A stretch of 64,000 nucleotides of DNA. It comes from an uncultured bacterium (lineage in GTDB: Bacteria > Verrucomicrobiota > Kiritimatiellia > RFP12 > UBA1067). A program made the translations under genes and the position numbers. Of the stretch, positions 7,683 to 54,338 are shown piece by piece; within the stretch, counting starts at the first letter, position 1, and every line of letters starts with the position of its first letter. The stretch covers positions 2,898 through 66,897 of the forward strand of contig CACZHC010000011.1 of NCBI GenBank assembly GCA_902780865.1, written 5' to 3'. The notes beneath the pieces were generated by a model. It searched no databases, was not told the origin of the DNA, and saw nothing but the letters and a program-made list of their open reading frames with translations.

Positions 7683-9551
7683 CTACCTGATAAAGACCGA
7701 CAATCCCGGAAATGGCGGAAAACTGAACGCTGACGGCAGAACCGTCTCAAAGCGGAAGTAGCCGAAGCGCCAGTAGCAAGAGGGGTATGGCAATGGCGCA
7801 ATGAATTCAAAGTCGTTCCACCCGCCTTGCAATTCACCCGGCTGAAAATCAAGTTTGTGTTGCTGCCAACCATCAGCGACTCTGAGTTTGCTCTTGCTTA
7901 CCTCATTGATGTAAATAGTAAAGGACTCCGTGCCGATTGCGTCACAGCACTGTGTAGCCGTCTTCATAACGAACGAGGCCCTGTCGGACACATCGGGATC
8001 GACCCAGACGCGGAAGTGAAGGTTGGTGATGCCCGTAGATGGCCTGAGCTCCTGTGGCCAGTGCTGAGTATTTGGATCCGCCGCAGACGGAACCCCGGTT
8101 TTAATACGTTCCGGATCGACCCTTCCATCGTCCTCGCTGCTTGCGGTCATCTTTCCCACGCCGAGCGAGCCACCAAGCTCCATTGCGTCTATTTTGAATA
8201 CGTCTCCACCACCATTCTTACGTTCAATGACAAGCGTATTCTCGCCCGCGGAGATAAGTTCTTTAGGCACAGGCCAAAATGCGCAACCGTCTTTCGCCAT
8301 GCGCATTTCCCCTAGAGACTGATCGTTCAATCTGGGCTCGATCGTGGCTGTCGCCGAATCCGGCAGCGATTTGATGGTGAGTATCTGCGCAAGGTTGGCT
8401 TCGTCACGCAAGGCGGTGAAGTTTACCGTCCAAGTGTCGCCGACTTTCATCGTGTTGGCAATGTCCTGCCACGAGCCAAGCCCGTCGATCTCCTGCGACG
8501 AACCCGACCGCGTACCGCCGAATTCGTGCGAGCTTCCATTGTCGAAACCAATCCTGAAAATTGCCGGTCGCGGCATACCGAACGCTTCCATGACCTCCTG
8601 GTCGCTAAGCGCCCTGCCCCATATAGCCAACTGCTGGACACTGCCGATGAAACACGTCTGGTCGGCGGCATTTGCCTCTTTAGGAGCCGTCTGCCCGTTA
8701 AAACAAAACATCCTGTAGCCATCAGAGAGCAACGGGCAGTTGTCCGTCCACATGTCTGTTTCAGCAAAAGCGATGGTGGGGTTGTCGCCATGATTTGCGG
8801 ACGATTCTGGCGTGGCAATGCCAACGCGCAGCTTGCCATTCCCCACCACCACTGCTAAGTCTACCCATGTATTCGTCGGAATCCGGATGGGGAAATTAAA
8901 GCTTGCATCGTCGCTCCCGCTGTTAGGCGTGCATTTTCCCTTTATGTATCTGGATCCAATATCGGTTATGCCCGAGCTTGCAGGAGATTTCGCGAGAGAA
9001 AGATACATTCCCTGTTTTGCCGATGCACTGTACCCTATCTTAAATAGGCACTCATCACGGTCAAGCCCGTCCTCATCCAGCTTTACCCTGCTGACGATCG
9101 TATATTTGTTGGATATGTTGTTGTCCGCAAAGACGCTATGAGGATTGACCACGAACGGAAGATAATAGTTTTTAGTACTGCCAGATGGTTTCACGGCCAC
9201 ATTGGAAATGCGCAGAACCCGCATGTTTTTAACTACGCCTTTCCCCAACGCCGGAAAAACAACCGGCTCGCTCCGAATAACGGCGTTTGCCCTAAACCCA
9301 GCGGAATCTCCCGTGTAGTACGATGTCGACATGGACATCTTGTGGTTGGCATGCGTTGGATCGTCTGCATGGAGGTCGTCGAAGAACTCGCCCTGCCGAA
9401 TGTAGCCGTCACTGTTCAAATCCTTGCCGCCGCGGAACCAGAACACGGCGTCGTTGAATACGTTTGTCGATCCGTGCGCCGCGAACGCGAGACACGCGAC
9501 AAAAAACCCACTCAGCGCCCTTGAGCACTTGCGCATTGCCATCGGATTCAT
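7683..9551 (-). CDS. secreted LamG/concanavalin-A-like lectin domain protein with C-terminal ...GLSVFIR tail
   Basis: ORF track gives 7683..9593. I prefer the internal ATG at 9551 (MNPMAMRKCSRALSGFFVACLAFAAHG) because it follows GAAAGGGGTAAG. ...QLAIWGRALSDQEVMEAFG... is a typical LamG (Laminin_G_3) signature. Only 3 nt separate its stop from the next gene start. Confidence 0.6.
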   Translation of the reverse strand: MNPMAMRKCSRALSGFFVACLAFAAHGSTNVFNDAVFWFRGGKDLNSDGYIRQGEFFDDLHADDPTHANHKMSMSTSYYTGDSAGFRANAVIRSEPVVFPALGKGVVKNMRVLRISNVAVKPSGSTKNYYLPFVVNPHSVFADNNISNKYTIVSRVKLDEDGLDRDECLFKIGYSASAKQGMYLSLAKSPASSGITDIGSRYIKGKCTPNSGSDDASFNFPIRIPTNTWVDLAVVVGNGKLRVGIATPESSANHGDNPTIAFAETDMWTDNCPLLSDGYRMFCFNGQTAPKEANAADQTCFIGSVQQLAIWGRALSDQEVMEAFGMPRPAIFRIGFDNGSSHEFGGTRSGSSQEIDGLGSWQDIANTMKVGDTWTVNFTALRDEANLAQILTIKSLPDSATATIEPRLNDQSLGEMRMAKDGCAFWPVPKELISAGENTLVIERKNGGGDVFKIDAMELGGSLGVGKMTASSEDDGRVDPERIKTGVPSAADPNTQHWPQELRPSTGITNLHFRVWVDPDVSDRASFVMKTATQCCDAIGTESFTIYINEVSKSKLRVADGWQQHKLDFQPGELQGGWNDFEFIAPLPYPSCYWRFGYFRFETVLPSAFSFPPFPGLSVFIR

Positions 9552-14906: not shown

Positions 14907-16022
14907 TCAGTCGCCCTCGAGCATCAGCTCGCGGAGACGCGCGATGTCCGCGTCGGTGAAGCCAGTCGACTTTACGTAGGACTCGATGCGTGCGTTAAGC
15001 GTGTCGCCCGGATATTTGTTCATCACTTCAAGGAGCGCGGCGTATGTGTTGTTGCGGTTGAACCAGTCGTGCTCGTCTTTCCAGAGAGCCGACGCCTCCC
15101 AGTCGCGCACAAGGTCCTCTGGCGACACGCCGAGGAGACCATTGATCAAGAAGGCAAGCGTACCAGTACGGTCCTGCCCGCTGCTGCAGTGGAAGAGAAG
15201 CGGAAGATTCTTCTCGTCACACACAAGCTCGAGCCCCTTCCTGCACGCCTCCTTCGCCCACGGCTCATCCATCTGCGAATAGCAGCCTGACGAAACCTCA
15301 ACACGTCGCACCGACGGCCCAAGAGGCGAACCGACGAGTCCAGCACATTCCTTTGGACTGCGCAAATCCAGCTCCGTGCAGATGCCAAGCGCATTTGTCA
15401 TGAAGTTTACGCCAGAATCGTCAAGACGCATGCGAGGCAGTTCACCGGGACACTCCGATGCATTCTCGCAAAGGTTCGCCGAGCGGTAGAGAAGACCCTG
15501 CTTCACACGCCGCCCGTCGGCAGTGCGCCAACCGCCAAGGTCGCGCACGTTCGGAACGCCAGGGACGCGGATAAGGCGCGGCGGACGGTCCTCGGTGAAA
15601 AATGAGCCTGTCGCCGAACCCTTCCCCGCGACGTCGACAGACCAGCGATAGCGGCAGCCGACCCTGAAGTTATCCCACTCGAACCGCCCAGTTGTGAGGT
15701 AGACAAAATTCGTGTCGCAGACACACACATCGTCATCCTCGCGCCAAATGCGGAAGTGAAGCCGCTCCTTTCGGGAGTTGATGCCAGTCCAGACGAAGAC
15801 GACAGGCTGAGGATACCACCCAAGCGCCAGGAGATCCGCACGATAGACTGCATCGCCCGCCTTTGACATGCGCTCCGCGTCTGAGGAGTCAAAAAACGAC
15901 TTTTGCCCCTCGCTCAGCAGCGGAACGGTCGCGCCTTCCGCCGGGAGCATCAGCTCGACGGCGGACGCGGCGCCGCAGACCGCGGCAACTGCCATGGCAA
16001 GAAGCGTCTTCATCGATGTCAT
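14907..16022 (-). CDS. secreted protein-tyrosine-phosphatase-like enzyme (Y_phosphatase3 type, CX5R)
   Basis: 371-aa ORF with a signal peptide. The active-site loop is HCSSGQDRTG. The start ATG overlaps the stop of the upstream gene (ATGA at 16022-16019). Confidence 0.65.
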   Translation of the reverse strand: MTSMKTLLAMAVAAVCGAASAVELMLPAEGATVPLLSEGQKSFFDSSDAERMSKAGDAVYRADLLALGWYPQPVVFVWTGINSRKERLHFRIWREDDDVCVCDTNFVYLTTGRFEWDNFRVGCRYRWSVDVAGKGSATGSFFTEDRPPRLIRVPGVPNVRDLGGWRTADGRRVKQGLLYRSANLCENASECPGELPRMRLDDSGVNFMTNALGICTELDLRSPKECAGLVGSPLGPSVRRVEVSSGCYSQMDEPWAKEACRKGLELVCDEKNLPLLFHCSSGQDRTGTLAFLINGLLGVSPEDLVRDWEASALWKDEHDWFNRNNTYAALLEVMNKYPGDTLNARIESYVKSTGFTDADIARLRELMLEGD

Positions 16023-19000
16023 TCCGCCGCGCCGATGCCGACGACAAAAAGCTGCGACTTGGACGTAGCGGCCTGAAGCTCGCCGAGCGCATCTGCGACA
16101 TCTGTGAGGGTGGCATTTAGAGTGAACGTCTCGGCGTCGTCAAGATTGTCCTTGCAGAGAAGGCCGAATGTCGAGCCGACGTTCGCGCCGATTTCCGCAG
16201 CACGGAATCCGACCGCGACCATGCCGCCCTCATACGCAATCGCTGTGAACGCGATGAACTTCCCGCCCTGTCCGTCGTCCAGTCCCTTAATGCCGCCGTT
16301 CGTGCCCGGGATGTCCCATTCGTCCGCAGGACGCGGACCGTATTCGCCGTACTCGTAGCATCCGATCGCCGGCTTCAGGTAGGAGAAGTACTTGCCGTCG
16401 AGGTCTTTTTCAAGACCGGCGTAGTCCGTGCCCGCCTCGATCGCAGGCGAAGTCGCGGCGAGATGGTAGTCGCCGTTCGCGGCATTGACAAAGAGCGGCG
16501 TTCCGCCGAAGAGGCAGGTCGTTGTCTTGGCCCCGACTGCGGAGGCGACTGTTGCGTCCTTGTACGCGACATCCGCATCGCCGGCCGTCGCGGCAGCTTC
16601 CGCCGTGTTGCCGGAGACGATGCAGTTCACGAGCGTCGTGTCGCCCTGGGCGATGTAGATTCCGCCGCCAAGCCCCGAGCCGACGACGCCATTGTTCGCA
16701 ACCGTCGTGTTGCGTATTACGGTCGTGAAGCTGTCGCTCGCGGCCACGCCCGTGACGGCGATGCCGCCGCCGTGGCTCGTGCGATCAGACGCGCCGGCCG
16801 TGTTGCCGTACACGAGGCAGGAGTCGATCTCGACGCTAAGCCCTGACCTTCCGCGGATGCCTATGCCGCCGCCAACTCCGTTGAGGAAGTCCGTTCCAGC
16901 GGAATTGCCCGCGACAATCGTGTGGTCGATCTTCACGCTGCCAGCGCCGCTCGCAAAGATGCCGCCGCCGCCATAGCTGCGCTTCGCATAGTTGTTCGTG
17001 ACGCAGCACCAGGAGACCGTGCCGTCGTCGATGTACACTCCGCCACCGGACTTGTCGTTGCCGTCGACCTTGCCTCCCGTGATGGCGACATGGCTGACGA
17101 CGCTTCCGTCCGCTATGTACGCCACGCGGTTGTCGCTTCCGGAGTTCGTTTTCGCGAAGCGAATCGTCGTGTTCGTCCAACCCTGGCCGACAAGCGTGAC
17201 GCCTCCAGTCACATTGAGCTGCGCGTCGATGTCGAAAAGACCGTTGCCAAGCGTGACGGTTCCCTGCGTCGGAACTGCGGCGTCGATTGCTTCCTGTATC
17301 GTCTGGCGCGTCTCGGCAGCCGTCTCGCCCGGCTGAATCCCCTCGCCCGGCTGCGGCGGAGTAATTACCTTGGGGATCGTAACGTCCTTCGTCTGGGTTG
17401 CGAACGGCGCGCCAGGGAATACAGCCGTGTAGCGCCCCGTGCCGGTCGCTTCGGTTGTCGCGGCCTGAACGACAGCGTAGGTCGCCGTGACTGTTTCGTT
17501 CGTCACATGCGCGGAATCGACGGTGCACGTCGCGCTTCCGGTGCACGTCGCGTTGTCGGCGGACCAGACGTACGACGCATCGCCCCAAGTATGGACGTGC
17601 GTTTCGGGACCGGGCTCAACAGGCTCGGCCCCGGTCGTAAAATTTCCGCTTTTCACCGCCCCCATCACGGTCTCGGCATTGTTGGAGATCGAAAGCGAAT
17701 AATAGTAAGTCGTCTCTGCCGTCAGGTTGGAAATGGCATAGTTGAACGAAGCCGTCGCGTCCTCGGCGATCTTCGTTGCCACGCCGAGAGTATTTGCACT
17801 CGCGCCGAGCGCGAGATAGACATCGCACGCGGTCGCGCCGGAGCCAAGCGAAGAGATCGTGCCGGAGATCGTCGCGTTCGTGACCGCCGGCGTAACGGTG
17901 ACCGTGCCGAGGACAGGCGACGTCTGAACGGGCTGAGCGCTGGATGAGGCCGTGCGGATGTTGTAGTCGTGGAGCTGCACGACGGGGTCCTCGTGAGGAT
18001 TGGGATAGGTGCCGCTCCACCCGCCGAGACGGACCTCGCGAAGCTTGTTGCTGTCCGTGTCGATAACGAAGATGCTGAAGTGGTAGGCGGCTTCCGTTCC
18101 GAGTTCGTGGCTCTTCGGCTTGCTCGGACAGTTCACGGCGTACGCGCTCGCGACGGATATTGCTGAAGCCCAGACCGCATTGCCAGGATTTGCGTCCTGA
18201 TCGGCCTTTGACGCGATTTCCTTCTCGTTCGTGAAATGGAAGTGCGCGGCGACGAGCCCGAAGAATCCCATGCCCTTGTGCGTGCCGAGGTTCCAGGGCT
18301 CATCGTGGCTCCCAGGGTTCGTGTAGCCGTTTATGTACCCGCACTGAAGGTCGGCGGCGGCGCCGCGTCCCGAGGAACCGCTAACCTTTTCCTCCGCACC
18401 GTGCGCGACCATGCCCATGACGGTGTTCTCCGGTGTGAGCGCTGGGTCGATGAGATTGCCGGATGCGTCGTAGAACTGCGCCGCGTCGTAGGCGCGGTAT
18501 TCGGACTTGCCGCCCGTCGCGCTGTCATAGAGGCTCACGCAGGCGATGCGCACGTTGGGGCCGCCGGACGCAAGAAGGCGACGGAAGTCGAGGTGGTAGG
18601 AGTTGCCGGTGAAATGTCCGGTTGTGCTGCCGAGCTTCGCGTTCGGAAGATCGCGATGGTAGGTGATGTCCACTCCCTGCAAATGCGCAGCGGCGGCAGA
18701 CGTGTTGAAGTTCGTCTGGACGTACGCCCACGCCTCGTCCGACATGTGCATATTCGCGCCGTTGAGCGAATAGTTGCGCTCGTGGTTGCCATCGATCGTG
18801 AAGAGCGGAACGCTCGCGGGGAGGTGCTGGTCAAACATCGCCTTCACGTTCCAGATTTCGTTGGTATATTCGGCTTCCGTGAGGCCGCGGTCCTGTGCGC
18901 CGCCGTTGTAGATCGGCGCAGTCGACAGGTCGCCGCCGTTGATGACGGCATCTAGCCCGGCGTCGACCGCCACGGACCCGAGAAGCCGGATCGACTGCTC

Positions 19001-19270
19001 CGCCTCCGTGAGGCAGCTGGCCGAACCGTACCAGTAGGTCGTGACCGGGTTAGTCGCCGCGTCGTCGCCTGCAACGCGCTTGCACTTGTGGACGTCGGAG
19101 ATCATGGCAAACGAGATGTACTTGCGCTTGCCGGTCGCAGGATCGATCGGGTTCACCTGTTCGACTATCGTCATGATGTCCGACTTGAGTCCGGCCTCAA
19201 GCGTCGCGACATCGTCTCCGAAGGCCAGAAGCCCCGAAGTCAGCAGTACGGCAGAAACGAGTTTTTTCAT
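16019..19270 (-). CDS. large secreted metallophosphoesterase fused to Pmp-type (GGGI...N) beta-helix repeats
   Basis: The track ORF starts at 19276. The second ATG (19270, MKKLVSAVLL) is 6 nt after AAGGAG. Calcineurin-like motifs are present (ISDVHK, GGDLS, IDGNHE). The C-terminal half has repeated GGGIFASG/GGGIGIRG/GGGIAVTG/GGGIYIAQ ... GN(S/T)A units. Confidence 0.65.
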   Translation of the reverse strand: MKKLVSAVLLTSGLLAFGDDVATLEAGLKSDIMTIVEQVNPIDPATGKRKYISFAMISDVHKCKRVAGDDAATNPVTTYWYGSASCLTEAEQSIRLLGSVAVDAGLDAVINGGDLSTAPIYNGGAQDRGLTEAEYTNEIWNVKAMFDQHLPASVPLFTIDGNHERNYSLNGANMHMSDEAWAYVQTNFNTSAAAAHLQGVDITYHRDLPNAKLGSTTGHFTGNSYHLDFRRLLASGGPNVRIACVSLYDSATGGKSEYRAYDAAQFYDASGNLIDPALTPENTVMGMVAHGAEEKVSGSSGRGAAADLQCGYINGYTNPGSHDEPWNLGTHKGMGFFGLVAAHFHFTNEKEIASKADQDANPGNAVWASAISVASAYAVNCPSKPKSHELGTEAAYHFSIFVIDTDSNKLREVRLGGWSGTYPNPHEDPVVQLHDYNIRTASSSAQPVQTSPVLGTVTVTPAVTNATISGTISSLGSGATACDVYLALGASANTLGVATKIAEDATASFNYAISNLTAETTYYYSLSISNNAETVMGAVKSGNFTTGAEPVEPGPETHVHTWGDASYVWSADNATCTGSATCTVDSAHVTNETVTATYAVVQAATTEATGTGRYTAVFPGAPFATQTKDVTIPKVITPPQPGEGIQPGETAAETRQTIQEAIDAAVPTQGTVTLGNGLFDIDAQLNVTGGVTLVGQGWTNTTIRFAKTNSGSDNRVAYIADGSVVSHVAITGGKVDGNDKSGGGVYIDDGTVSWCCVTNNYAKRSYGGGGIFASGAGSVKIDHTIVAGNSAGTDFLNGVGGGIGIRGRSGLSVEIDSCLVYGNTAGASDRTSHGGGIAVTGVAASDSFTTVIRNTTVANNGVVGSGLGGGIYIAQGDTTLVNCIVSGNTAEAAATAGDADVAYKDATVASAVGAKTTTCLFGGTPLFVNAANGDYHLAATSPAIEAGTDYAGLEKDLDGKYFSYLKPAIGCYEYGEYGPRPADEWDIPGTNGGIKGLDDGQGGKFIAFTAIAYEGGMVAVGFRAAEIGANVGSTFGLLCKDNLDDAETFTLNATLTDVADALGELQAATSKSQLFVVGIGAAE

Positions 19271-19300
19271 TTGCATCTCCTTTTTTGTGGTGACGTCGAA

Positions 19301-19367
19301 AGTATAGCAGAAACGCAGATGTCGAACAATTATTCAGAGGTATACCCCCGCGTATACAAAGGTATAC
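19301..19367 (-). promoter_or_regulatory. promoter (TTGTTC-17-TATACT) with an upstream array of three GTATAC palindromes
   Basis: On the minus strand the -10 TGCTATACT is at 19309-19301 and the -35 TTGTTC at 19329-19324. GTATAC occurs at 19340-19345, 19352-19357 and 19362-19367. In my hand alignment, 37 of 44 positions are identical to 20533-20576. Confidence 0.6.
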
Positions 19368-20462
19368 TTACCGAACGAAAATCACAGCGCCGGACTTGCC
19401 GCCGATTTCCTCCACGTCGCCAGCCGTCAGGAAAGTAGAGCTCGCGACCGTCGCGTACTCCGCGGCAATCCAGTCCGCCGACGCGACAGCATTGAGAAGC
19501 CGGCATTCGTCGAACGAACCATCTGCACAATTTGAACCGCCGCCAGATTTGCTGCCAATGGAAAATGATTTTTCATTGTCAGTAGCCGCAGTAATGCTGT
19601 CTGAGCGAACAGAGAAATTGCCATTGGTATAAGCCGTAATCGTCGTCCCATCGTATACGAACGCCAAATGGACCCAATTATTATGTGTATCAGGAGTAAT
19701 TGATCCAGTGCATAAGTTTTTGTCTTCAGCAGCGCCACGCGCCTTGAACTGACCAAAACTGGACAGCTCTATTTCCCAACCGTCAGAATCCTTATAGCCA
19801 ACCTTACGCGAGAAAACACGCGGGCTGCTCCCATATCCAGTAAGGCGCACCCATCCCGAAACAGAGAATGTGTTGCCGACACTGAACGAATCGTAGCTTG
19901 CAATCGAGAGATAACTGGCCGAACTACCTGTCCCTGTCCTTCGGGCATGTCCGACTGGAGCATCGCTGCCACTATATCGATTGCTTTTTGTCGTGTCTGT
20001 ACCCGCCGGCATGGCCGTAAGTCCGTGGCCTGTCGCGTCGGCGACCGGGCCACTTGTCTCGTCCATGTGCCAGACACCGACGTAGTTCGCACCCGTCCAG
20101 GTGGCGGCAGGGTTGTTGATCGTATCGTCCGAACCGCAGAAGCACATCGTAAACGTCGTCGTTTTCGTTACCGACGGAACGAGGACCCAGACGAGCGAGG
20201 TACCAGAGATATCCCAAGTGTCGACTTCATGCGGAACGACATTGCCTCCAGAGTCCTTGAAAACCAAATTGGTAGTCGCGCCGAAATCAGCGTAGTCAAA
20301 GCCCTCAATGGCAGTGGAGAGCTTCACAAGGACGGGGAAATTTGCAATCGGTCCAGAACCTTGATAGCCAGAGGTCGTAAAAGTGATCGACTTCGTAAAA
20401 CCGCCAAATGCGGACACGACGCCAGCTACAGACAGCAACGAGAATAAAAAGAACTTTGCCAT
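19368..20462 (-). CDS. secreted DUF2341 + LamG lectin-like protein with C-terminal ...GGKSGAVIFVR tail
   Basis: The track ORF starts at 20480. I prefer ATG at 20462 (MAKFFLFSLLSVAGVVSAFG), 7 nt after GGAG. ANFPVLVKLS...LVFKDSGGNVVPHEVDTWDISGTSLVWVLVP matches the DUF2341 pattern. A LamG-like C-terminal half follows. Confidence 0.65.
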   Translation of the reverse strand: MAKFFLFSLLSVAGVVSAFGGFTKSITFTTSGYQGSGPIANFPVLVKLSTAIEGFDYADFGATTNLVFKDSGGNVVPHEVDTWDISGTSLVWVLVPSVTKTTTFTMCFCGSDDTINNPAATWTGANYVGVWHMDETSGPVADATGHGLTAMPAGTDTTKSNRYSGSDAPVGHARRTGTGSSASYLSIASYDSFSVGNTFSVSGWVRLTGYGSSPRVFSRKVGYKDSDGWEIELSSFGQFKARGAAEDKNLCTGSITPDTHNNWVHLAFVYDGTTITAYTNGNFSVRSDSITAATDNEKSFSIGSKSGGGSNCADGSFDECRLLNAVASADWIAAEYATVASSTFLTAGDVEEIGGKSGAVIFVR

Positions 20463-20509
20463 TGTGGTTCTCCTTTTCATTAATCTTGTTTGTGAGATAC
20501 GGCTGCACT

Positions 20510-23377: not shown

Positions 23378-23379
23378 GT

Positions 23380-38199: not shown

Positions 38200-41100
38200 T
38201 CAGCGGATTATAACCACCAGGGAAGTCTTCCCCGCCCGCGTCATGAAGCACTCAAGTTCAGGGAACACCGCGTCCCCAACGCGACCGAGAACCCACGGCT
38301 CGTAGCCGTTCTCCTCGACGGCAACATTCAATGCCCTTTTTGCACTAGCAGGCGCATAGCCATTGTCGGCGGCAGTCACGAGCCCATTCGTGATGATGGT
38401 GCTCTCTGAATTGTCTGCACAGAAGTTTTTGGTCATGAAGAAGCTGTTCACCGCGCCGTACTGGCGGGCAGGGGAATCGGCGACATTGGTCTCGAACCGT
38501 GCGAAGATCTCTCCAGTCAAACCGCCTTCCGCCGGGGCCGAGAGGGACCCGTAGTTGGCGCAGTTGTAGAACAGGAGTATGGTGGAGGGGTGGCCATCGT
38601 TGGCGTTGAAACCGCCGAGGAGCCCGCCCGCGTACTTCCCGCCCGTGACGGCCCCATAGTTGGCGCAGTTCGTGGCCGTGACGGAATTGTTGTTGTAGAG
38701 GCTGTCGACGAATCCGATGAGTCCGCCGGCCACGTTGCCTGTGACGGGGGTCGTGCCGTCTCCCGCGACGGCGGTGCCGATGTCGCCTCGGTTGACGCAG
38801 CCCGACAGAACCGTCTCGCAGCCGCGGTAGAGGAATCCGACGATGCCGCCGAGGTTGGCGGCGGTCGTGCCAAGGGAGCGGATGTCCCCGAGATTGGCGC
38901 AGTCGACGATGTACAGGACGCCGCCATGCTCGGCCGTGGCGTTGATGTTCCTTTCGCCGAGAATGCCGCCGAACTTGATGCCGTAGGTGACAGCCATCGT
39001 CGACGTTAAGTCGGCCTCGTTGACGCAGCGGAGAATGCGGATGGCCGGCAGATAGGTCGAGTTGTGCACGTTGACCTTGCCGACGATGCCGCCAGAGACG
39101 AGCATATTGTTGACGTAGACGACGACGGGGGCGCGGTTCGTGCAGTCGGCGACAAGCGCGAGCGTCTCGCCAGCAACAGGATTTCCCTCGCCGTCGGTCG
39201 GGGAGAAGTCGGCCGTGCGGTCGATGGCGCCGACGATGCCACCCGCTCCGTTGGTGCGCGTCTGCCGGAACGTGCAGCTGGCCGCCGCCATGCACCGCTC
39301 GATGGCGGCGCCGTCGACCATCCTGCCGACGAGGAAGCCGACGGTGCAGTCGTTCCCCGTCTGGAGGACGAGGTTTTCCACCGTGACGTCGCAGATCGCG
39401 CCGCCGGAGAGCGTGTTGGCAACCGTGCCGAACACGGCGCTGGCGCCGAGCGTGATTTTCGTCGCCGAACCTTCCGAGGCCGCGTCGACGACGAAGTTCG
39501 AGGCGCATCCGTAGAGATGGTTGAAGAGCGGCAGTCCGCCGTTCGGGCACCGGATCGAGTGTCCTGCGCCGTCGAAGGCCGCATAAAAGTCCGGGGCTAC
39601 CCAGTCCGCGGGCAGTTCGATATCGGACGAGAGATGGACTGTGACGCCGGGAACGGTCTCGGACGAGACGGCCGTTGCGAAATCCGCTGCCGTAGCGACA
39701 TGAACATTCGCGGGAACATACGAGGCGTGAACCGTCAGATCATCGGTCACGTTGTCGAACGCCGTGTCCCATCCAACGAAAATGTATCCTTCTCGCGAGG
39801 GATTGGCCGGCGGTGTTGCCGCCTCGCCGTGGACGACCTCCTGGTCCTCTCCGATCTGCGTGTTGTCCCAGTCGAAGAACGAGACCGTGTGGGTGAGGAT
39901 GCCGCTCGAATACTGGGCGGTGAACGTCGTGTCCGCCGTCAGGCCGGTGAACGCGGCCGGGATCCAGCCGACGAAGGTGTAGCCGTCGCGGACCGGATCC
40001 GCAGGGGGTAAGACGCATCCGCCGCGGGCGATGGTCTTCTGCTTGAGGACGGTTTCGTCCCAGTCCTTGAACGTTGCGACGATGGTGTCCGGCGCCGCCT
40101 CGTCGGGCAGGATCTTGAGGATGGGGAACTCGTGGCCCTGCTTCCAGAGGTTGCAGTTGCTGTTGTAGGCGTTGAGCGCCGCAAGGTCCGTGCCGTCCAC
40201 AAGGCCATCGGAGTTGCCGAGATACACATTGCCGTTCATGTTGAGCGTCGTGATGGTGGCACCCTCCGCGTATGTCCCAATGAGAGCGTCGCTGGCGTAC
40301 AGCCCGCCCTCGATGTCAATGCGCGGATGGACAACGCCCTTCGTCAAGACGCCGATCGCCTCGCCCGGAAACACGCCTTCCTTGCGGGCGGTGATCGTCC
40401 CCGTGTTCATGCAGGAATGGATGAGTATCTTGGTGTTCACATAGTCCTTGTTGTGCTCCAACGAGCAAATAAAACCGCCCGCGCTGTAGCCAGTGATGTC
40501 GCCGGTGTTGGCGCAGCCCGTGATGGAGACATCCACCTGGATAGGCGCAACAATGACTCCAATCAGACCGCCGATCTCGGATCGTGTGTCGCCATTTCCG
40601 GTGGAAGTCACGCTTCCGTAGTTGATGCAGTCCTCCATTGTGAGCTTTCCGCTCGTCCAGCGGCCGACAAGACCACCGTAGTTCGTCCCGGAGGAAGTAA
40701 GGCTGCCATTGTACACAAACGACCCGTAGTTTGCACAGCTGCGGATGACGGCGTCGGCCATCTGGGTGGAAGCGCCAGTTCCAGCTGTATGCACGAGACC
40801 GCCAAAGCTACGGTTGGTTCCGGTCCAGGTCGAGGAGCCCGTGCCGCTGTAGTTCGTGCAGCCGTCCAGGATCAGGTGGGCGTAGTATTCGGCGGTTCTT
40901 CCTCCGCCTTTGACCATCAGGTTTCCGGCAATGCCGCCGAACTGCGAACCATAGGACTCCCCTGTGGAGAGGGCCGCCGCCATCGTGCAGTGCGTGAAGG
41001 AAATCGTCGCACCCGTTCCGGTGGCGGTACCGTTCCCCGCGATGCCGGCATGCTGGTTGACGCCAAGGGCGAACGAGCAGGTGTTATCCACATGGCAGTC

Positions 41101-41574
41101 CGAGAACGATGCCGTCCCCGTCACGGAGAACAAACCGACGACGAAAGCGACGTTGCCCTGCTTCTGGGCGTTCTGTAGGGTCGACTCGGTGAAGGTGACG
41201 TTTTCCACGGTGAGGTTCCCAGCCGTGACGCTGTTGATAAGCATTCCACGGTTACCCCCGGTGGGAAGAGCGACGTTCGCGGCTTTCACGACAAGATTGC
41301 TGATGGCAATGTCGCCGGTGATGGTGCCGAAGAGCGGAGCGGAGAGGTTCGTGATCTTGTACCCCTTGCCGTCAAGCGTGCCTGAAAATCCGTCAATCGT
41401 GGTCCACCCCGAGCAGTCTATGTCCGCGGTGAGCGTGTATGTACCGGAGGGATCGGCGGCGATGGCCGCAGCGAGTTCGGCCGCGGTGCCGATGTCCGCG
41501 GCGAATGTGCCGCGGGAGAGGATTGCAAGACCAATGGAAGCGAGAACGAATTTCAACCATTTCATAGGCAACAT
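38200..41574 (-). CDS. large secreted GLUG-repeat protein (two GLUG modules separated by Listeria-Bacteroides repeats) with ...AGKTSLVVIIR tail
   Basis: 1124-aa ORF with a signal peptide. The head motif DIGTAAELAAAIAADPSGTYTLTADIDCS occurs twice. It has many GG(I/L)(V/I)G...N.G repeats and two repeats of the ...GYTFVGW... type. Confidence 0.7.
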   Translation of the reverse strand: MLPMKWLKFVLASIGLAILSRGTFAADIGTAAELAAAIAADPSGTYTLTADIDCSGWTTIDGFSGTLDGKGYKITNLSAPLFGTITGDIAISNLVVKAANVALPTGGNRGMLINSVTAGNLTVENVTFTESTLQNAQKQGNVAFVVGLFSVTGTASFSDCHVDNTCSFALGVNQHAGIAGNGTATGTGATISFTHCTMAAALSTGESYGSQFGGIAGNLMVKGGGRTAEYYAHLILDGCTNYSGTGSSTWTGTNRSFGGLVHTAGTGASTQMADAVIRSCANYGSFVYNGSLTSSGTNYGGLVGRWTSGKLTMEDCINYGSVTSTGNGDTRSEIGGLIGVIVAPIQVDVSITGCANTGDITGYSAGGFICSLEHNKDYVNTKILIHSCMNTGTITARKEGVFPGEAIGVLTKGVVHPRIDIEGGLYASDALIGTYAEGATITTLNMNGNVYLGNSDGLVDGTDLAALNAYNSNCNLWKQGHEFPILKILPDEAAPDTIVATFKDWDETVLKQKTIARGGCVLPPADPVRDGYTFVGWIPAAFTGLTADTTFTAQYSSGILTHTVSFFDWDNTQIGEDQEVVHGEAATPPANPSREGYIFVGWDTAFDNVTDDLTVHASYVPANVHVATAADFATAVSSETVPGVTVHLSSDIELPADWVAPDFYAAFDGAGHSIRCPNGGLPLFNHLYGCASNFVVDAASEGSATKITLGASAVFGTVANTLSGGAICDVTVENLVLQTGNDCTVGFLVGRMVDGAAIERCMAAASCTFRQTRTNGAGGIVGAIDRTADFSPTDGEGNPVAGETLALVADCTNRAPVVVYVNNMLVSGGIVGKVNVHNSTYLPAIRILRCVNEADLTSTMAVTYGIKFGGILGERNINATAEHGGVLYIVDCANLGDIRSLGTTAANLGGIVGFLYRGCETVLSGCVNRGDIGTAVAGDGTTPVTGNVAGGLIGFVDSLYNNNSVTATNCANYGAVTGGKYAGGLLGGFNANDGHPSTILLFYNCANYGSLSAPAEGGLTGEIFARFETNVADSPARQYGAVNSFFMTKNFCADNSESTIITNGLVTAADNGYAPASAKRALNVAVEENGYEPWVLGRVGDAVFPELECFMTRAGKTSLVVIIR

Positions 41575-43797: not shown

Positions 43798-46398
43798 TCA
43801 TCTGACGACTACCACAAGTCCGCCGCTCTTGCCAAGCGAGAAAGTCGTGGCATAGCCAGGGTTCGTCTGGTTGCTGGAATCGTCGACCTTCTTGATGGAC
43901 AAGACATTGTACTCATTGTTCTCGTATGGGCTGGCCAAGAAGGAATACTGCAAATCGTCGCCGGATCGCAGAACCTGCATTCCCCACTGGCTGGAAATCG
44001 CCTCTTCAAGCCCCTTCCAGTCTCCATATTCCGATGTAAACGTGGTGGTTCCGTCAGCAAGGCGAAGGTCCGCGCCAAAGAGTATCGTTGCAGTCGGATA
44101 ATTGGTTTTTAGCTTGTTGATCGTCGAAACCGACAACGACAGATAATCCTTGACGTTCTTGGTTGGGTTGAAGAACCCGCAGACGAGAAGATATATGTTC
44201 TGGGTATCCTTCTCCTTGACAGGCACCCAGGCGAAGGTGGCATTGGAAGCCGGCATGGCTGTAGACGCAGGACCGAACGCTTCGAATCTCGAGGACTTGA
44301 AGAAGAACACTCGCCCGCTTGCGTCTGAAGACCCGTTGCTGCCGGTATAGACGCAGTCATATCCCTCAATATTGGCCATCATTGTCTGCAGCAGTGTTGA
44401 GCTCAGGCCAAACCCCGAAAACACGCAGACATCCGGGTTAGTCGCCTCGAACGCCGCCGCAATGCCCTTGCTGCGCGCAGACACACTCGATACGTTGATG
44501 CTTTTCAGATTCCACTGAAAGAGGGTGAGCTGCCTCACATAAGGCTCCTTTTCAGCCTTCCAAAGCGCCGTCATCGTGATGTCTTTGTCGTGGATAGTCC
44601 CCACATCCGTATAGATCCCGTCGAGAGACCACCCAGAGAAGACAAAGCCACTTAGCAAGGGAACGGGAAGATCAAACAGCGAATAGACGTTCCCGGTGAC
44701 GGAAGCGCACGGCGTTCCACCGCAAGTGTCAAACGCGACCGTATACTGCAGCGGCGCATACTTCGCGTACACAATTGTGTTCTCGACGATGTTGTCAAAC
44801 GATGCACTCCAGCCCGCAAAGGAATAATGCGTGCGCTCGGGGTCCGCCGGCGCCGTAGCGGACGAACCGGGAGATACAGCCTCCTGACCGAGTATCGCCC
44901 CGTCCCAGTCCCGGAAGACAACGAGCCGGCGGTCTGCGGACGGAACGAACGCAAGAAGCTCGGGACGCCCGTCCGTTCCAGAGACCCACGGCAGATACGA
45001 AAGGTCCGCACCTGCAACATCGTTTAGACCTGCCAACGCATCAGCGTCATCTGCAGTCTTCATGTTGCGCTGCGTGGGAACCTTGGGTGTTGCAGAAGCA
45101 TAGATTGTTGATGTCTTCGTCCAGCAGTTGTCGAACAGCCCAGCGTCCGTTGCGCTGGTGTTGTATGTCAAGGAAGCTGTCATCTCGCCCCAGGAACCAG
45201 TGGCGGCAACCGTTCCGTAAGAAGCGCAGTTCAGGAAGTGGAAGTACCCGGTCGCCCAACCGATGTTCGTGTCGATTTTACCGCACAACCCGCCTGCGGA
45301 GCTTCCGCCGTCCACCGAACCGTAGTTGGCGCAGTTGCGGAAAGTCAAGTCGCGTGTATTCGCCTCGCCGCTCATGTACGTGCCCCAGAAGCCTGCTAAC
45401 CCTCCGGCGTATTTGGCCTTGCCGTCGGTACCAATCGCCCCGTAGTTTGCACAGCCGTCAAAAACCGCAGACACGCTGGACGTGCCCTGCCCGACAATGC
45501 CGCCGATTGCGGAGCACGACGACGCGGTTATGATCGACCCAAGGTTGATGCAGTCTATGAAATAAGATCTGTTGCCGTATTCCTTGTGATTCCCGAAGGC
45601 TATATAGCCAACAAGTCCGCCCGCATTGACGCTCCCGCCTGTCACCGTAATGTCGCCTTTGTTGACGCAACCGATAAAGACAAAGCGCGTGATTGTCGCC
45701 TTGCCGCCAGTAAGGGCGCCGACAAATCCTCCCGACCCCCAGCTGGAATTGTTGTCCCCTCCCACGGAAAATGACACGTCGTTCGTGCAAGAGTCAAAAG
45801 TCACCACGACGCCGTCGGATTCGTCCTTTGTCGCAACACCAACGAAACCTCCCACCATCGCATTCGCCTTCCCGTTCTTGGAGAGCGAGCATGATGCGTC
45901 GGTGGCGCATCGCTCAAACAGAGTCCCCGCATATGCCGCCCCGGCAAAAAGGCCGATGCCGACACCGCCAACGTTGCCGGTGCTATGCTTGATCGTATAC
46001 CCCTTCACCGTAACGCCGCTGAACGTGCCGGAATGGGCGCCTTTGCAGATTGCGCCGTATCCGGTGCCTGTCATAGTCGTGTTGGCGGAATCCAAAGATC
46101 CATCAACGACAATGTTCTTGATCGTCCCTTGGAACTTGTCGAACAAAGGCGTGGAGCCCCTCCAGGAAAGAACGTGTCCGTTGCCGTCGATAACGCCTTT
46201 GAAGGCCGGCAGCATAGCATAGTCAGTCGATGAAAGATCCATGTCGGCTGTTAGCGTGTATGAGCCGGCAGGATCATCCACAAGCGCCGCCGCAAGGTCG
46301 GCCGCAGTGGAAATGTCAACCGCATAGGCGAAAACGGAATTGAGAAGCAGGCCCGCCGCGAAGAGGAACGTCGTCAATCTAAGGGTTTTCATAGACAC
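43798..46398 (-). CDS. secreted GLUG-repeat protein with Listeria-Bacteroides repeats, C-terminal EEP-like domain and ...GKSGGLVVVVR tail
   Basis: 866-aa ORF. The head motif is DISTAADLAAALVDDPAGSYTLTADMDLS. It has GG(F/L)VG repeats and ...HYSFAGW.../...GFVFSGW... repeats. The C-terminal ~250 aa begin LTLFQWNLKS (weak call as an endonuclease/exonuclease/phosphatase-like domain). Confidence 0.65.
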   Translation of the reverse strand: MSMKTLRLTTFLFAAGLLLNSVFAYAVDISTAADLAAALVDDPAGSYTLTADMDLSSTDYAMLPAFKGVIDGNGHVLSWRGSTPLFDKFQGTIKNIVVDGSLDSANTTMTGTGYGAICKGAHSGTFSGVTVKGYTIKHSTGNVGGVGIGLFAGAAYAGTLFERCATDASCSLSKNGKANAMVGGFVGVATKDESDGVVVTFDSCTNDVSFSVGGDNNSSWGSGGFVGALTGGKATITRFVFIGCVNKGDITVTGGSVNAGGLVGYIAFGNHKEYGNRSYFIDCINLGSIITASSCSAIGGIVGQGTSSVSAVFDGCANYGAIGTDGKAKYAGGLAGFWGTYMSGEANTRDLTFRNCANYGSVDGGSSAGGLCGKIDTNIGWATGYFHFLNCASYGTVAATGSWGEMTASLTYNTSATDAGLFDNCWTKTSTIYASATPKVPTQRNMKTADDADALAGLNDVAGADLSYLPWVSGTDGRPELLAFVPSADRRLVVFRDWDGAILGQEAVSPGSSATAPADPERTHYSFAGWSASFDNIVENTIVYAKYAPLQYTVAFDTCGGTPCASVTGNVYSLFDLPVPLLSGFVFSGWSLDGIYTDVGTIHDKDITMTALWKAEKEPYVRQLTLFQWNLKSINVSSVSARSKGIAAAFEATNPDVCVFSGFGLSSTLLQTMMANIEGYDCVYTGSNGSSDASGRVFFFKSSRFEAFGPASTAMPASNATFAWVPVKEKDTQNIYLLVCGFFNPTKNVKDYLSLSVSTINKLKTNYPTATILFGADLRLADGTTTFTSEYGDWKGLEEAISSQWGMQVLRSGDDLQYSFLASPYENNEYNVLSIKKVDDSSNQTNPGYATTFSLGKSGGLVVVVR

Positions 46399-51464: not shown

Positions 51465-54338
51465 TTATCTTAGCGACACCTTAAAGCCTGGTTTTCCTGG
51501 CTTCGTCATGAAGTGCGACAGCTCTGGCGCAATAAAGGCACTGCTCCCTCTGCCAATCTTTCCAAGCACCCAGTACTCAAGGCTGGCAGCGTCAGCAATA
51601 ACGTTCAGCGCGTTTCGCGCCGACGAAGCGGCATAGCCTTCGTCCGACGAGCCAACTATTGCCTCTCTGGCGAAATCCCCGTCCGTGGCGTTGTCGCCAA
51701 ATAGCGGGACTCCCGCATTTGACGACATCTCAAAGAAGGCGTTGACCAGGCATCGAACATGCGCCACATTTGGAACCACGCAGCTTCCGACCGCCTGTGC
51801 CGCGTTCGTGACGCCTGAGATAGCCGCATAGTTGGCGACATTGGAAAGGACGACAGCCGTGCCGACGTAGTTCACGTTCGCCCCGATCTGCGCGACGAGG
51901 CCGGCTGCGCGATGTCCCAACACCGCGCCGTAGTTCGCAGAATCGACTATGGCGAGGCGCGCTTCCTTGTGAAGCGACGCTACATTCCCTACAAGCCCGC
52001 CGGCGCACTTCTTGTAGAAAGACGAACCCTCCGGCTCGTAGCCGGACAGGACCACCCCGCGGTTCGCACAGCGGGATATCTCAATGACACCCTGGTACGG
52101 ACCGCCGACATTGCCGACGATGCCGCCTGCATGCGTCGTCACATACGCGGTGCTTGCCGCGGTTGAAGTGTTGGAGATCGCGCCAACGTTCTGGCAATCA
52201 ACGATAGAAAGAGCCCCGACGGCGCTGCCCACTGTCGCATATCCAACGATTCCGCCAAGGTTGCAGGCCGCGTGGGTCGATGTGAACGTTCCGTCGTTGA
52301 AGCAACGCTCAATTCGGCACTCGACGGAAGGCTGCCCGTCGGGAAGGGAAACGTCGATATGACCGACGATTCCGCCGTTCCCGCCGGCAACGGTATTGTA
52401 GTCCCCGGTCTTCTTTTCGATCGCGGCGTGGTTTGTGCAGTCGAATATCCCGGAGAACTCCGCGCCCGCGTAGTCAGTCCCCTTCGCAATGCTGCCCGCA
52501 ATCGCTCCGCACTTCACGTTGTTGCCCGCCCGCAGCAAGCATCCCGCCTTGATTGTGCAATTGGACACCAACGCGCCGCACTCGAGCGTGCGCGCAATGA
52601 AACCAATGGATACGCCATTTGCCTCAGACTCGACTGTCGACGAGGCGATCACGAGATTCTTGACACGGCCGCCGAAGACGGTGTTGAAAAGCGGCGCGGC
52701 GAGCCCTTCGAGCGTGTGCCCGTTTCCGTCGAGAATTCCCCTGAAGTCCACGGCATTCCACGACGCAAGGTTGATGTCAGCCGTAAGCCTATATCGCGCA
52801 CCGGCGGGAGAACCTTCGGTTATGGCGGCGGCGAACTCGCCATACGAACCGATTTCCTGTACGCCATCCGTCGTGCCGGATCCACCCTGGGGATCGTCGC
52901 CGCCCTGAGGATCGTCGCCGCCCTGAGGATCGCCGCCTCCCTGGGAGTCGCCCTCCAGGTTGATGCGGAAGATGGCGCCCGAAAGCTCGGGGTCCTTAGG
53001 CAGGTTCTTCCAGATCTCGCACACGTTCGTCGAGTATCCCATGCCGACGTAGAAGTCGTCGCCGTATTTGCAGAGCGCAGTCGCATGGCGGTTGGTGGCG
53101 AAGTGGAAGAGCTCGGTGAACGTAACGCCGTCCTCGGTCTTCCACACGCTGTTCGTCACGACCGTCCCCATCTCGGTCCCCGTAGCTGCCACGATGTACG
53201 CCGCGCCGTCGCTCACGTGTATGTCGAACGGGCGCGCGCCGCCGAGGTCGATCTTCGTCGCCTTCACGTGGTGGTTCTCGTTGACCGCGCTGTACGCAGC
53301 CCACGGACGGCTGTGGCTCGCGACATTGGTCTTTATGCCTTCGATCAGATAGAGCACCCTCGATCCGAACCTCCGGCAATGCGACGGCCTGATGTCGAAT
53401 TCAAGGTAATCACTCATCCAATCAGCGACCGAAATCGCCTTGTCCTCTTCGGTAATCCCCGGCGCGACGTCGCTCCACGGCACAAGCGAAGAGACGAACT
53501 TGCCGAGCGATGCGTCCCAGCGCCACTCTTCCCACTCAAATATATCAATGTCGCACTTGTACCCGAAATCCATCGAGAAGCAGAACAGGTCATCGTCAAA
53601 CGGCATGAACGCCGCGAACTTGCGCGCCTGGGCGACATTGAATCGATTCTTCCCTGCAATCCACACTGAGGTAGAGCTCTCGAAGTATGTTCTATAAGCG
53701 GACGACAAGTCGGGTGTCGCGTCCGTCATCCTCGTGTCGCCCCAGTTAGAAGATGCGCAGATTCCGTATCCAGCGGTAAAGAACTTGCCTCCGAACTCGG
53801 CAATATCCCAAATATGCGCAGCGTAATTCGCGGTTGCTCCGTTATGCCCGCTTATGCATGACGTCAGGTTCGTCCACGTTCCGTCGGTCTCGCGACGGAA
53901 GAAATGCCCCGCATGCTCGTGGCTTTCGCGCATGTCCACGCTACCAGCCCACAGCCGCCCGTCGGAGAACGACTTGAGATCGGTTATGAGCTCCGTGCCG
54001 GCCTCAAACTCGTTGGTAAAAGTCCCCGTCGAGGGATCGACAGCGAAGATTGGCACGGGGCCCTGGTTGGAAAACGCGCCCCAGTCGCCGCCAGTCGTGT
54101 AGATCTTGCCGTTGTACACGTGGAGATCCTGAACCTCGCGCGCATAGAAGCCAGGCCGCGACCCGGGCGTGTTCCATCTCGTCGCGTTCGGGTTGCACAC
54201 GAACTCGGGCGACACTTCGACCGAGCCGGCAGGTGCAGAATTTCCCTGCGCGCCAGCCGTCTGCGGCACTACGACGATTGACGCCGCAATGACCGCAATA
54301 ATTAGGGCCGTTGATTTTATCGTTGATAGCGATTTCAT
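51465..54338 (-). CDS. secreted protein: N-terminal beta-propeller-like region, (GGDxPQ)n linker, C-terminal GLUG module, ...PGKPGFKVSLR tail
   Basis: 957-aa ORF with a signal peptide. The GLUG head motif is internal (...SPAGARYRLTADINLASWNAVDFRGILDGNGHTLEG). It has GGIVG repeats. The C-terminal 45 aa are homologous to those of the 38200 gene. Confidence 0.65.
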   Translation of the reverse strand: MKSLSTIKSTALIIAVIAASIVVVPQTAGAQGNSAPAGSVEVSPEFVCNPNATRWNTPGSRPGFYAREVQDLHVYNGKIYTTGGDWGAFSNQGPVPIFAVDPSTGTFTNEFEAGTELITDLKSFSDGRLWAGSVDMRESHEHAGHFFRRETDGTWTNLTSCISGHNGATANYAAHIWDIAEFGGKFFTAGYGICASSNWGDTRMTDATPDLSSAYRTYFESSTSVWIAGKNRFNVAQARKFAAFMPFDDDLFCFSMDFGYKCDIDIFEWEEWRWDASLGKFVSSLVPWSDVAPGITEEDKAISVADWMSDYLEFDIRPSHCRRFGSRVLYLIEGIKTNVASHSRPWAAYSAVNENHHVKATKIDLGGARPFDIHVSDGAAYIVAATGTEMGTVVTNSVWKTEDGVTFTELFHFATNRHATALCKYGDDFYVGMGYSTNVCEIWKNLPKDPELSGAIFRINLEGDSQGGGDPQGGDDPQGGDDPQGGSGTTDGVQEIGSYGEFAAAITEGSPAGARYRLTADINLASWNAVDFRGILDGNGHTLEGLAAPLFNTVFGGRVKNLVIASSTVESEANGVSIGFIARTLECGALVSNCTIKAGCLLRAGNNVKCGAIAGSIAKGTDYAGAEFSGIFDCTNHAAIEKKTGDYNTVAGGNGGIVGHIDVSLPDGQPSVECRIERCFNDGTFTSTHAACNLGGIVGYATVGSAVGALSIVDCQNVGAISNTSTAASTAYVTTHAGGIVGNVGGPYQGVIEISRCANRGVVLSGYEPEGSSFYKKCAGGLVGNVASLHKEARLAIVDSANYGAVLGHRAAGLVAQIGANVNYVGTAVVLSNVANYAAISGVTNAAQAVGSCVVPNVAHVRCLVNAFFEMSSNAGVPLFGDNATDGDFAREAIVGSSDEGYAASSARNALNVIADAASLEYWVLGKIGRGSSAFIAPELSHFMTKPGKPGFKVSLR
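52885..52954. repeat. in-frame 18-bp tandem repeat (~3.8 copies) encoding the GGD(D/P)PQ linker
   Basis: Units ccctg(g/a)ggatcgtcgccg lie at 52885, 52903 and 52921, with a partial unit at 52939. Confidence 0.8.

Follow-up and report, generated by a model that had tools for sequence, protein, structure and literature searches.

A short C-terminal tail shared by unrelated exported proteins of Kiritimatiellae, a putative docking or sorting tag

A 64,000-nucleotide stretch of contig CACZHC010000011.1 (here called the window), which has a GC content of 61% and belongs to a Kiritimatiellae genome, encodes five exported proteins that end in the same kind of short hydrophobic tail directly before the stop codon. 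Kiritimatiellae degrade polysaccharides in rumen, gut, and marine sediments, where they are abundant but have hardly been brought into culture, and the homologs of these proteins come from named Kiritimatiellae metagenome-assembled genomes (MAGs), mostly of rumen or gut origin. The tail spans about eight residues with the consensus [PS]-G-[FLMT]-x-[ILV]-[IFL]-[VLI]-[R>K]-COOH, is restricted to the C-terminus and to proteins with signal peptides, and is specific to a clade centered on Kiritimatiellae. It is a product neither of chance, nor of a DNA repeat, nor of common ancestry, and by analogy with known systems it is probably a docking or sorting tag.

The five genes, designated A to E, all lie on the minus strand and all specify Sec-type N-termini, and the tail noticed on each by a first-pass annotation was confirmed in place. 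Carrier A (7683..9593) is a Sec-exported protein of 636 residues with a weak LamG match; it ends in ...PFPGLSVFIR, the tag itself (7683..7709) being PGLSVFIR followed by a TAG stop codon. Carrier B (19368..20480) combines DUF2341 and LamG domains in 364–370 residues (370 in the window) and ends in ...IGGKSGAVIFVR, given also as ...GGKSGAVIFVR, with the tag SGAVIFVR and a TAA stop at 19368..19394. Carrier C (38200..41574), of 1124 residues, has a β-helix, GLUG-like region resembling the N-domain of IgA1 protease together with Flg_new/InlB B-repeats, and its C-terminus, ...RAGKTSLVVIIR (also ...AGKTSLVVIIR), contributes the tag TSLVVIIR with a TGA stop at 38200..38226. Carrier D (43798..46398; 866 residues) is likewise β-helix/GLUG-like with Flg_new repeats and closes with ...LGKSGGLVVVVR (also ...GKSGGLVVVVR), that is, the tag GGLVVVVR and a TGA stop at 43798..43824. 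Finally, carrier E (51465..54338; 957 residues) is GLUG-like in its C-terminal half and ends in ...KPGKPGFKVSLR (also ...GKPGFKVSLR); its tag, PGFKVSLR with a TAA stop at 51465..51491, is an amphipathic variant that is also seen in homologs as GFKITIR, GFKLIIR, and GFRIIIR. A and B are thus LamG/DUF2341 proteins, and C, D, and E share a β-helix “GLUG-like” fold with Listeria-Bacteroides/InlB repeats, for which the closest PDB neighbors are a putative IgA1 protease N-domain, SRRP adhesins, Ag43, and phage tailspikes. The exact LamG protein B recurs, with the same synteny, in ENA metagenome assemblies.

Because the five tails are written in differing codons and closed by three different stop codons, what is conserved is the peptide and not the DNA. 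A DNA repeat or terminator lying over the stop codons was considered and ruled out, as there is no common nucleotide motif and terminator-like sites occur at background level. The GC content at third codon positions (GC3) is low in B, A, and D (0.56, 0.63, and 0.67) compared with about 0.8 in neighboring genes, which could point to a recent transfer or to low expression of these genes in this genome. As a general signature of tagged genes, low GC3 or rare codon usage was rejected, since no difference is found between 64 tagged genes and untagged genes for exported proteins (p=0.67) and the tail codons are ordinary.

The distribution of the tail was followed in 78 loci fetched around DUF2341/LamG homologs, about 1.03 Mb from 40 species-level MAGs. 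In these loci and the window, 651 genes were called with a purpose-built, two-pass open reading frame (ORF) caller, and signal peptides were assigned with a heuristic test. The full motif, G[VILFMT]x[VILFM]3[RKQ]$, stands at the C-terminus of 27 of the 252 proteins with signal peptides, of 3 of the 304 without them (mostly miscalled starts), and of only 1 of 2124 spurious ORFs. Its internal frequency in the window and the 78 loci, 8e-5 per position, predicts 0.02 C-terminal matches, so that the tail is enriched about 1000-fold over internal sequence. With the bait family and the window left out, the core motif is found on 14 of 184 proteins with signal peptides versus 6 of 286 without (Fisher p=0.008), about 0.3 being expected. 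Together with the 26 carrier groups described below, the excess of 27/252 over 0.02 bears out the original suggestion of a position-specific, modular tag on Sec-exported proteins, and, for these loci, the internal frequency counters the concern, raised at the same time, that the motif might be just as common within proteins. The tag is present in 31 of the 41 sampled MAGs.

Searches beyond these loci give a similar picture. A bait-free scan of metagenome contigs for DNA encoding P-G-F-x-I-I-V-R-stop returned 37 matches, about 26 of them of a chance type with upstream ORFs of at most 51 codons, mostly on low-GC contigs. Ten matches end ORFs of 39–1571 codons on contigs of 57–66% GC, seven of these ORFs having at least 95 codons and the shortest, L097 with 39 codons, running off the end of its contig. 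The four complete ORFs (1112–1571 residues) all have signal-peptide-like N-termini and are distantly similar to Kiritimatiellae carriers. Moreover, a profile search with the LamG/DUF2341 family found 109,534 representatives at E≤1e-3 among 1.84 billion clusters; within the best 150 of these, 147 sequences were newly returned, no two of which reach 50% identity; 72 of the 147 end in the strict tag pattern, and at least 12 more are near-matches to it.

Residue frequencies in 64 non-redundant tails define the anatomy of the tag. Position −8 is most often P (21%), S (14%), or G (12%), position −7 is G in 68%, position −6 is F, T, L, or M, and position −5 is variable; these are followed by I (51%), L (25%), or V (15%) at −4, by I, F, or L at −3, and by V, L, or I at −2. 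At −1, 64% of the tails have R and 14% have K, with Y, F, W, Q, N, H, and D as minor alternatives, and basic residues are common at −8 to −10. As glycine formed no part of the selection pattern for these tails, its prevalence at −7 is independent evidence for the motif. The consensus drawn earlier from the window broadly stands in its glycine, its hydrophobic run, and its terminal arginine, but the conserved Gly-Lys that it included is not general: the conserved elements are Gly at −7 and Pro or Ser at −8, and one lineage has x-T in place of G-F. Even the terminal arginine is a majority feature, replaced elsewhere by K, Q, N, H, Y, F, W, or D. As such replacements are found even in orthologs that are 77–89% identical, a strict read-out of Arg-COOH is disfavored.

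Variation in the tag is organized by lineage. In MAGs with a GC content of at least 66%, the tail takes the form x-T-[MLVI]-[LMI]-I-L-R, with Gly at −7 in 2 of 16 tails and Thr at −6 in 13 of 16, whereas in the other MAGs it takes the form G-[FLMV]-x-I-[IF]-V-R, with Gly at −7 in 34 of 41 and Thr at −6 in 6 of 41 (Fisher p ~1e-6). In one MAG, all three tails end in K, on three different architectures. Such flavors shift together across non-homologous carriers, as would be expected if the tails were co-evolving with one shared receptor; the pattern, read from sequence, suggests that such a receptor exists. An acid-terminated ending, [PS]R.[VM][FL][ST]ID (also ...GVGFFVD), is found at the C-terminus of several different proteins in two to three MAGs (for example L024_13899_16097, L024_16150_17163, L039_5766_8900, L039_8912_11053, L008_3543_6890, and L015_7697_11044) and may represent a further lineage flavor.

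The proteins that carry the tag are diverse. When the 150 residues preceding the tail are compared, only 225 of 1830 carrier pairs are similar, and the 61 carriers separate into 26 groups with no similarity between them. In the related loci they contain mainly LamG/DUF2341 domains, BspA-type leucine-rich repeats, InlB repeats, or choice-of-anchor Q/β-helix domains, or have no Pfam match, and a minority have Peptidase_C10, GH9+CelD_N, GDSL esterase, or 3-keto-disaccharide hydrolase domains. From this content it follows that the tag favors binding proteins without barring enzymes; the view that carriers are exclusively non-enzymatic needs correction for this minority, and the dominance of lectin-like and adhesin-like proteins on which it was based stands. 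Carriers are also long, with a median of 1115 residues compared with 424 in other proteins with signal peptides (p=2e-9). In three carrier families, orthologs keep the tail, so that loss of the tail in orthologs, which had been named as a possible refutation, is not what is seen. The tail therefore combines a location at the extreme C-terminus of exported proteins with modularity and conservation among orthologs, the features by which a C-terminal sorting or docking tag is recognized operationally. Homologs of the GLUG-type domain in Firmicutes end in a P[SA]TGD, transmembrane (TM), and basic sortase signal or in SLH domains, and three tails stand directly after a choice-of-anchor Q domain, of a domain class that in NCBIfam naming is defined by its place before interchangeable anchors. 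Judged by this domain order, the tail appears to occupy the position of known anchors.

Two other recurrent C-terminal endings in these genomes are distinct from the tag, although both had been proposed in the first-pass annotation as degenerate variants of it. One, ...LFVVGIGAAE, closes the gene at 16019-19276 (minus strand) and is simply where a homologous domain of about 250 residues terminates, with upstream similarity in 45/45 pairs. This ending, ...T.K.QLF[VA]VGIG.AEE, is found there and in nine homologs (for example L002_11140_14397, L005_2567_7942, and L037_1476_5240), on large metallophosphoesterase-like secreted proteins encoded directly downstream of the LamG gene B. The other, ...RFFKVFVEKK, belongs to the C10 peptidase at 55520-58171 (minus strand; ...HRFFKVFVEKK) and represents a separate recurrent RFF[KRQ]V ending, W..[TN]....[RH]FF[KRQ]V.[VR]..[KE], which also occurs in a family of small signal-peptide proteins and in others (for example L054_6905_7729, L060_6817_7677, L063_6873_7721, L065_6797_7597, L009_1_1173, P0181, and P0205). 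In P0181, which is homologous to a tagged choice_anch_Q protein, the tag is replaced by an additional domain that has this ending, and the RFF-type ending may be an alternative C-terminal module. The C10 homolog L040_537_5819, which ends in ...GFFILLR, is one of the enzymes that carry the tag.

Structure prediction was applied to two of the carriers. The AlphaFold2 (AF2) model of B is a LamG sandwich (predicted TM score (pTM) 0.83) whose fold ends near residue 358, leaving the tail at 361–370 free with a low predicted local distance difference test (pLDDT) score. For C, the C-terminal half was modeled; it forms a β-helix (pTM 0.84) followed by an unstructured stretch of ~30 residues at the very end, again with low pLDDT. 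As both predicted folds end before the tail, the models indicate that it is a free appendage rather than a structural strand of the carrier.

In the window, carriers head or interleave operons of untagged GH39, rhamnosidase, polysaccharide lyase (PL), GH76-like, β-helix, and CE4 genes. A stands first in its operon, followed by the GH39 and rhamnosidase genes, and E heads a longer operon that continues with a PL (heparinase/alginate lyase with CBM6), a GH76-like gene, D, a β-helix protein, C, an uncharacterized gene, and a CE4 gene. By analogy, the arrangement resembles polysaccharide utilization loci (PULs), where surface glycan-binding proteins accompany enzymes. Regulators of the GntR/LacI and AraC/XylR types lie near these PUL-like operons (window 7683-54338, minus strand). 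Three secreted proteins of 505–990 residues without a Pfam match at E≤0.1 (23380-25995, 26120-29092, and 36653-38170, minus strand) are encoded inside the operons of carbohydrate-active enzymes (CAZymes) and may represent unclassified carbohydrate-active families. The synteny around B (window 14907-23377) is kept in related loci (L001, L002, L004-L006, L009, L036, L079, and L080) and comprises a divergent pair of HisKA_3 histidine kinase and LuxR-type response regulator, the LamG/DUF2341 gene, the large metallophosphoesterase-like protein, and a secreted Y_phosphatase3 protein.

How one short tail could serve so many unrelated proteins is best explained, with a likelihood judged a little better than even, by a docking or sorting tag that is recognized in trans, probably through β-strand augmentation, for surface display or outer-membrane routing. 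Recognition in trans, surface localization, strand augmentation, and the identity of the partner are all matters that we infer, with analogous systems as the guide. On this model, the tail would remain unstructured once its carrier has been exported by Sec, and one shared envelope component would then capture it in trans by augmentation of a β-strand, the register being fixed by the terminal basic residue and the carboxylate. A captured carrier would be kept or displayed on the cell surface or routed across the outer membrane, and the untagged CAZymes of the same operons would follow the default route. The two leading candidate receptors are a tip or minor pilin of a type-4-filament or type II secretion system (T2SS)-like apparatus, as in a PilC/PilY1 plug, and the open edge strand of an Omp85-/BamA-type barrel.

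Several observations weigh against this interpretation. No receptor was found, and no gene resembling sorting machinery is conserved beside the carriers in the ~1 Mb of related loci. The families that do recur near them (the histidine kinase/LuxR-type response regulator pair, Y_phosphatase3, metallophosphoesterase, the small signal-peptide family, PEP-CTERM proteins, and a TPR membrane protein) were considered as sorting machinery, and none is a plausible receptor. Only a single prepilin-type gene is found in the ~1 Mb, unlinked to carriers; its product, L056_2505_3242 (245 residues), begins with MNKTEKG followed by FTLVELLVVIGILG..., and type-4-filament pilins thus exist in these MAGs. Further, even orthologs that are 77–89% identical differ in the last residue, which can be R, N, Q, Y, H, or K, and GC-linked amino acid usage could add to the flavor differences, although it leaves the loss of glycine in the high-GC lineage unexplained. 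The gene and signal-peptide calls are heuristic, and the sample is centered on DUF2341/LamG loci, so that the frequencies describe these loci and not whole proteomes. The AF2 models draw on shallow alignments of 20 and 11 sequences and, being monomer models, are compatible with oligomeric strand exchange.

Strand exchange among the carriers themselves is in fact the most serious of the competing explanations. A β-prone strand, such as VVVVR or IIIIQ, could oligomerize its carriers by exchange or steric zipper into a surface layer or fibrils with no dedicated receptor. The strand is almost wholly β-branched or hydrophobic, many carriers are adhesin-like β-helices, and pairing between molecules would account just as well for a tail left free in monomer models. 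Yet the Pro/Ser-Gly before the strand, the fixed length, the strictly terminal site, and the bulky polar last residue look like a motif that is read out, lineage-wide shifts in flavor are easier to reconcile with one shared partner, and 26 unrelated carrier classes would need to co-assemble; self-association is considered rather unlikely. A different role for the same exposed strand is suggested by PDZ domains, which bind short hydrophobic C-terminal strands with a free carboxylate via β-augmentation. The tail, exposed in the AF2 models, might by this established mode be a ligand for the PDZ domain of a Prc/Ctp-type or DegS/DegP-type protease, a signal for periplasmic proteolysis or quality control that governs maturation, turnover, or stress signaling, a role that would accommodate the processing idea of the first-pass annotation. 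Proteases of the Tsp/Prc type, however, prefer a small apolar residue at the terminus and are blocked by a charged one there, whereas Arg and Lys dominate the end of the tail. Moreover, a degron would be a surprising addition to dozens of very large, costly proteins, and such a function explains neither the cell-wall anchors found at the same site in Firmicutes nor the choice-of-anchor domains that precede the tail, so that it is judged improbable.

The position shared with these anchors raises the further alternative of a direct membrane anchor or miniature tripartite signal, akin to PEP-CTERM, PGF-CTERM, and LPXTG, that a transpeptidase would cleave and link to lipid or glycan. The tail follows the tripartite logic, with a [PS]-G small-residue motif, a hydrophobic stretch, and a basic end, and the same MAGs encode PEP-CTERM proteins and hence probably an exosortase. 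Against this, its 4–6 hydrophobic residues are too short for the TM helix that holds precursors in all known systems, true PEP-CTERM tails in the same loci consist of VPEP, a TM segment of about 20 residues, and RRKRK, and models of the exosortase and rhombosortase type are without matches near carriers; a signal of this class is very improbable. The possibility that the tail has no function at all, and arises from chance, composition bias, gene-calling artifacts, or an inherited C-terminal domain, is assigned a probability close to negligible. Hydrophobic residues and arginine are common at 61% GC and LamG/DUF2341 domains are common to many carriers, but this reading is refuted by the statistics, namely the ~1000-fold enrichment and the near absence of the motif from spurious ORFs. 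Tail codons differ, Gly at −7 occurs in 68% of tails though outside the search pattern, and the tail follows 26 unrelated classes of preceding domain, whereas the inherited LFVVGIG ending is similar upstream in every pair.

Beyond a docking or sorting tag read in trans, a broader proposal, for which the chances are put at somewhat short of even, is that the tag is the address label of a previously unrecognized multi-substrate display or secretion pathway in Kiritimatiellae and perhaps in neighboring lineages of the Planctomycetes-Verrucomicrobia-Chlamydiae (PVC) group. In this pathway, dozens of lectins and adhesins and a few enzymes per genome would be delivered to one envelope receptor, either the tip pilin of a pilus or pseudopilus or a dedicated Omp85-type barrel. 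To our knowledge, the well-known multi-substrate C-terminal signals on Sec-exported bacterial proteins are all either a motif with a TM helix, as for sortase, exosortase, and rhombosortase, or a folded domain, as in the C-terminal domain (CTD) of the T9SS (type IX secretion system). A TM-less tag of eight residues on many unrelated large proteins would represent a third design, in which the one-protein “plug” principle of PilY1 becomes a proteome-wide sorting system. The surface proteome of Kiritimatiellae would then be predictable from sequence, and the pathway would define which PUL-encoded proteins of these polysaccharide degraders are surface-exposed, separating surface glycan-binding proteins from periplasmic enzymes in PUL-like operons. 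About half of the top LamG/DUF2341 representatives bear the tag without any annotation. The lineage flavors offer a handle for a receptor search by co-variation, and the tag, if sufficient alone, would be useful for surface display.

Comparison with known systems begins from the finding that no Pfam or NCBIfam model matches the tag; for NCBIfam at E≤10, thirty C-terminal 60-mers returned only choice_anch_Q, upstream of the tail. In the literature searched, limited to searchable full text, only mechanistic analogs and no description of the tag were found, in agreement with the initial impression that no sorting signal of this form had been described. The nearest mechanistic analog is the plug of PilC/PilY1 in type 4a pili, a stretch of about 12 residues that closes the protein, has low pLDDT in monomer AlphaFold models, and docks by β-strand augmentation on the minor pilin PilK (Denic et al. 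2026, bioRxiv 10.64898/2026.09.18.752573). The plug stands after the IPR008707 β-propeller on one or two proteins per pilus system and alone specifies tip localization, and its sequence, which is specific to each system, is considered to evolve together with the receptor strand (bioRxiv 10.64898/2026.09.18.752573). Like the tag carriers, PilC/PilY1 is a large protein exported via signal peptidase I with a variable lectin- or adhesin-like part, and in both the tail is free in monomer models. The Kiritimatiellae tag differs in its presence on many unrelated architectures per genome with one consensus and in the lack of pilin genes linked to carriers; the PilY1 β-propeller (IPR008707/Pfam Neisseria_PilC) is found in none of the 42 carriers scanned.

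A second analog is the β-signal of outer-membrane proteins (OMPs), which is read by strand augmentation at BamA β1. It too is a short β-strand at the C-terminus, with Gly placed several positions upstream and hydrophobic side chains close to the end (polar-x-G-x-x-Φ-x-Φ), and a terminal F, Y, or W is seen in some variants of the tag (...VFFF, ...ILFY, ...LLVW). Pyocin L2 illustrates the use of a tail of this sort by a soluble lectin-like protein: its C-terminal peptide pairs with BamA β1 as a β-signal mimic (PMC13463100). Carriers of the tag, in contrast, are LamG β-sandwich and β-helix proteins rather than β-barrels, and their strand is contiguously hydrophobic rather than alternating and ends mainly in R or K, with about 10% aromatic. 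In the same MAGs, the C-terminus of true OMPs and TonB-dependent receptors is the canonical ...YMFTIRYEF. The TonB box is also a strand of about seven residues read by β-augmentation, and the high-GC flavor of the tag (E-T-I-M-I-L-R, P-T-V-I-V-V-R) resembles its D/E-T-Φ-x-V-x-A, but TonB boxes are N-terminal, with the form ELP[PR]VVVEAS in these MAGs, and the C-terminal tag has no consistent linkage to TonB or ExbBD genes. TonB-dependent receptors with this box and a ...YEF C-terminus are encoded near carriers (L013_17283_19346, L036_2871_4949), and a set of ExbB/ExbD/ExbD genes is located some 8 kb downstream of the gene for a tagged LamG protein (L023, L025 19219-20723).

Larger C-terminal signals show a different build. 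Numerous Sec-exported adhesins and enzymes per genome, though not all, bear the T9SS CTD (Por_Secre_tail, TIGR04183), which targets them for translocation across the outer membrane and attachment to the surface and often ends in a hydrophobic strand with Lys or Arg. The CTD is, however, a folded β-sandwich of 70–100 residues in Bacteroidota and other bacteria of the Fibrobacteres-Chlorobi-Bacteroidetes (FCB) group, whereas the tag of these PVC-group bacteria has about eight residues and no domain; the C-terminal 60-mers give no Pfam or NCBIfam match to the CTD at E≤10, AF2 shows no terminal domain, and the upstream 150 residues are unrelated. The LPXTG, PEP-CTERM, PGF-CTERM, GlyGly-CTERM, and MYXO-CTERM signals are, like the tag, C-terminal, modular, multi-substrate, and lineage-specific, with a motif, a hydrophobic stretch, and a basic end, and the tag stands where Firmicutes homologs have their sortase signal. 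The tag differs from them in having neither a hydrophobic segment of TM length nor a basic cluster. With 4–6 hydrophobic residues, a single basic residue, and no NCBIfam match, it falls outside PEP-CTERM (TIGR02595); the LPXTG motif and its TM segment are absent from the tails and present in Firmicutes homologs of carrier C; and for GlyGly-, MYXO-, and PGF-CTERM there is again no TM-length segment and no NCBIfam match. PEP-CTERM proteins (VPEPSSGLLTLIGFAFLALRRKRKEA) are encoded at L065_15628_16281, L076_5576_6226, L071_14178_14822, L063_15535_16221, and L043_4353_5036, adjoining untagged giant LamG-family proteins of about 2600 residues and an 800-residue multi-TM/TPR protein, and their presence implies that an exosortase system probably coexists with the short tag in these MAGs.

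Because canonical PEP-CTERM tails, β-signals, and TonB boxes coexist with it in the same MAGs, the tag is not a degenerated version of one of these signals. Its separateness from PEP-CTERM, LPXTG, GlyGly-CTERM, MYXO-CTERM, the T9SS CTD, and the OMP β-signal, as first proposed, is upheld by these comparisons, and among the mechanisms then suggested, strand docking is the one that analogy best supports. The tag itself thus appears to be undescribed, and the kind of signal to which it would belong, the C-terminal sorting and docking signals of exported proteins, is already known.

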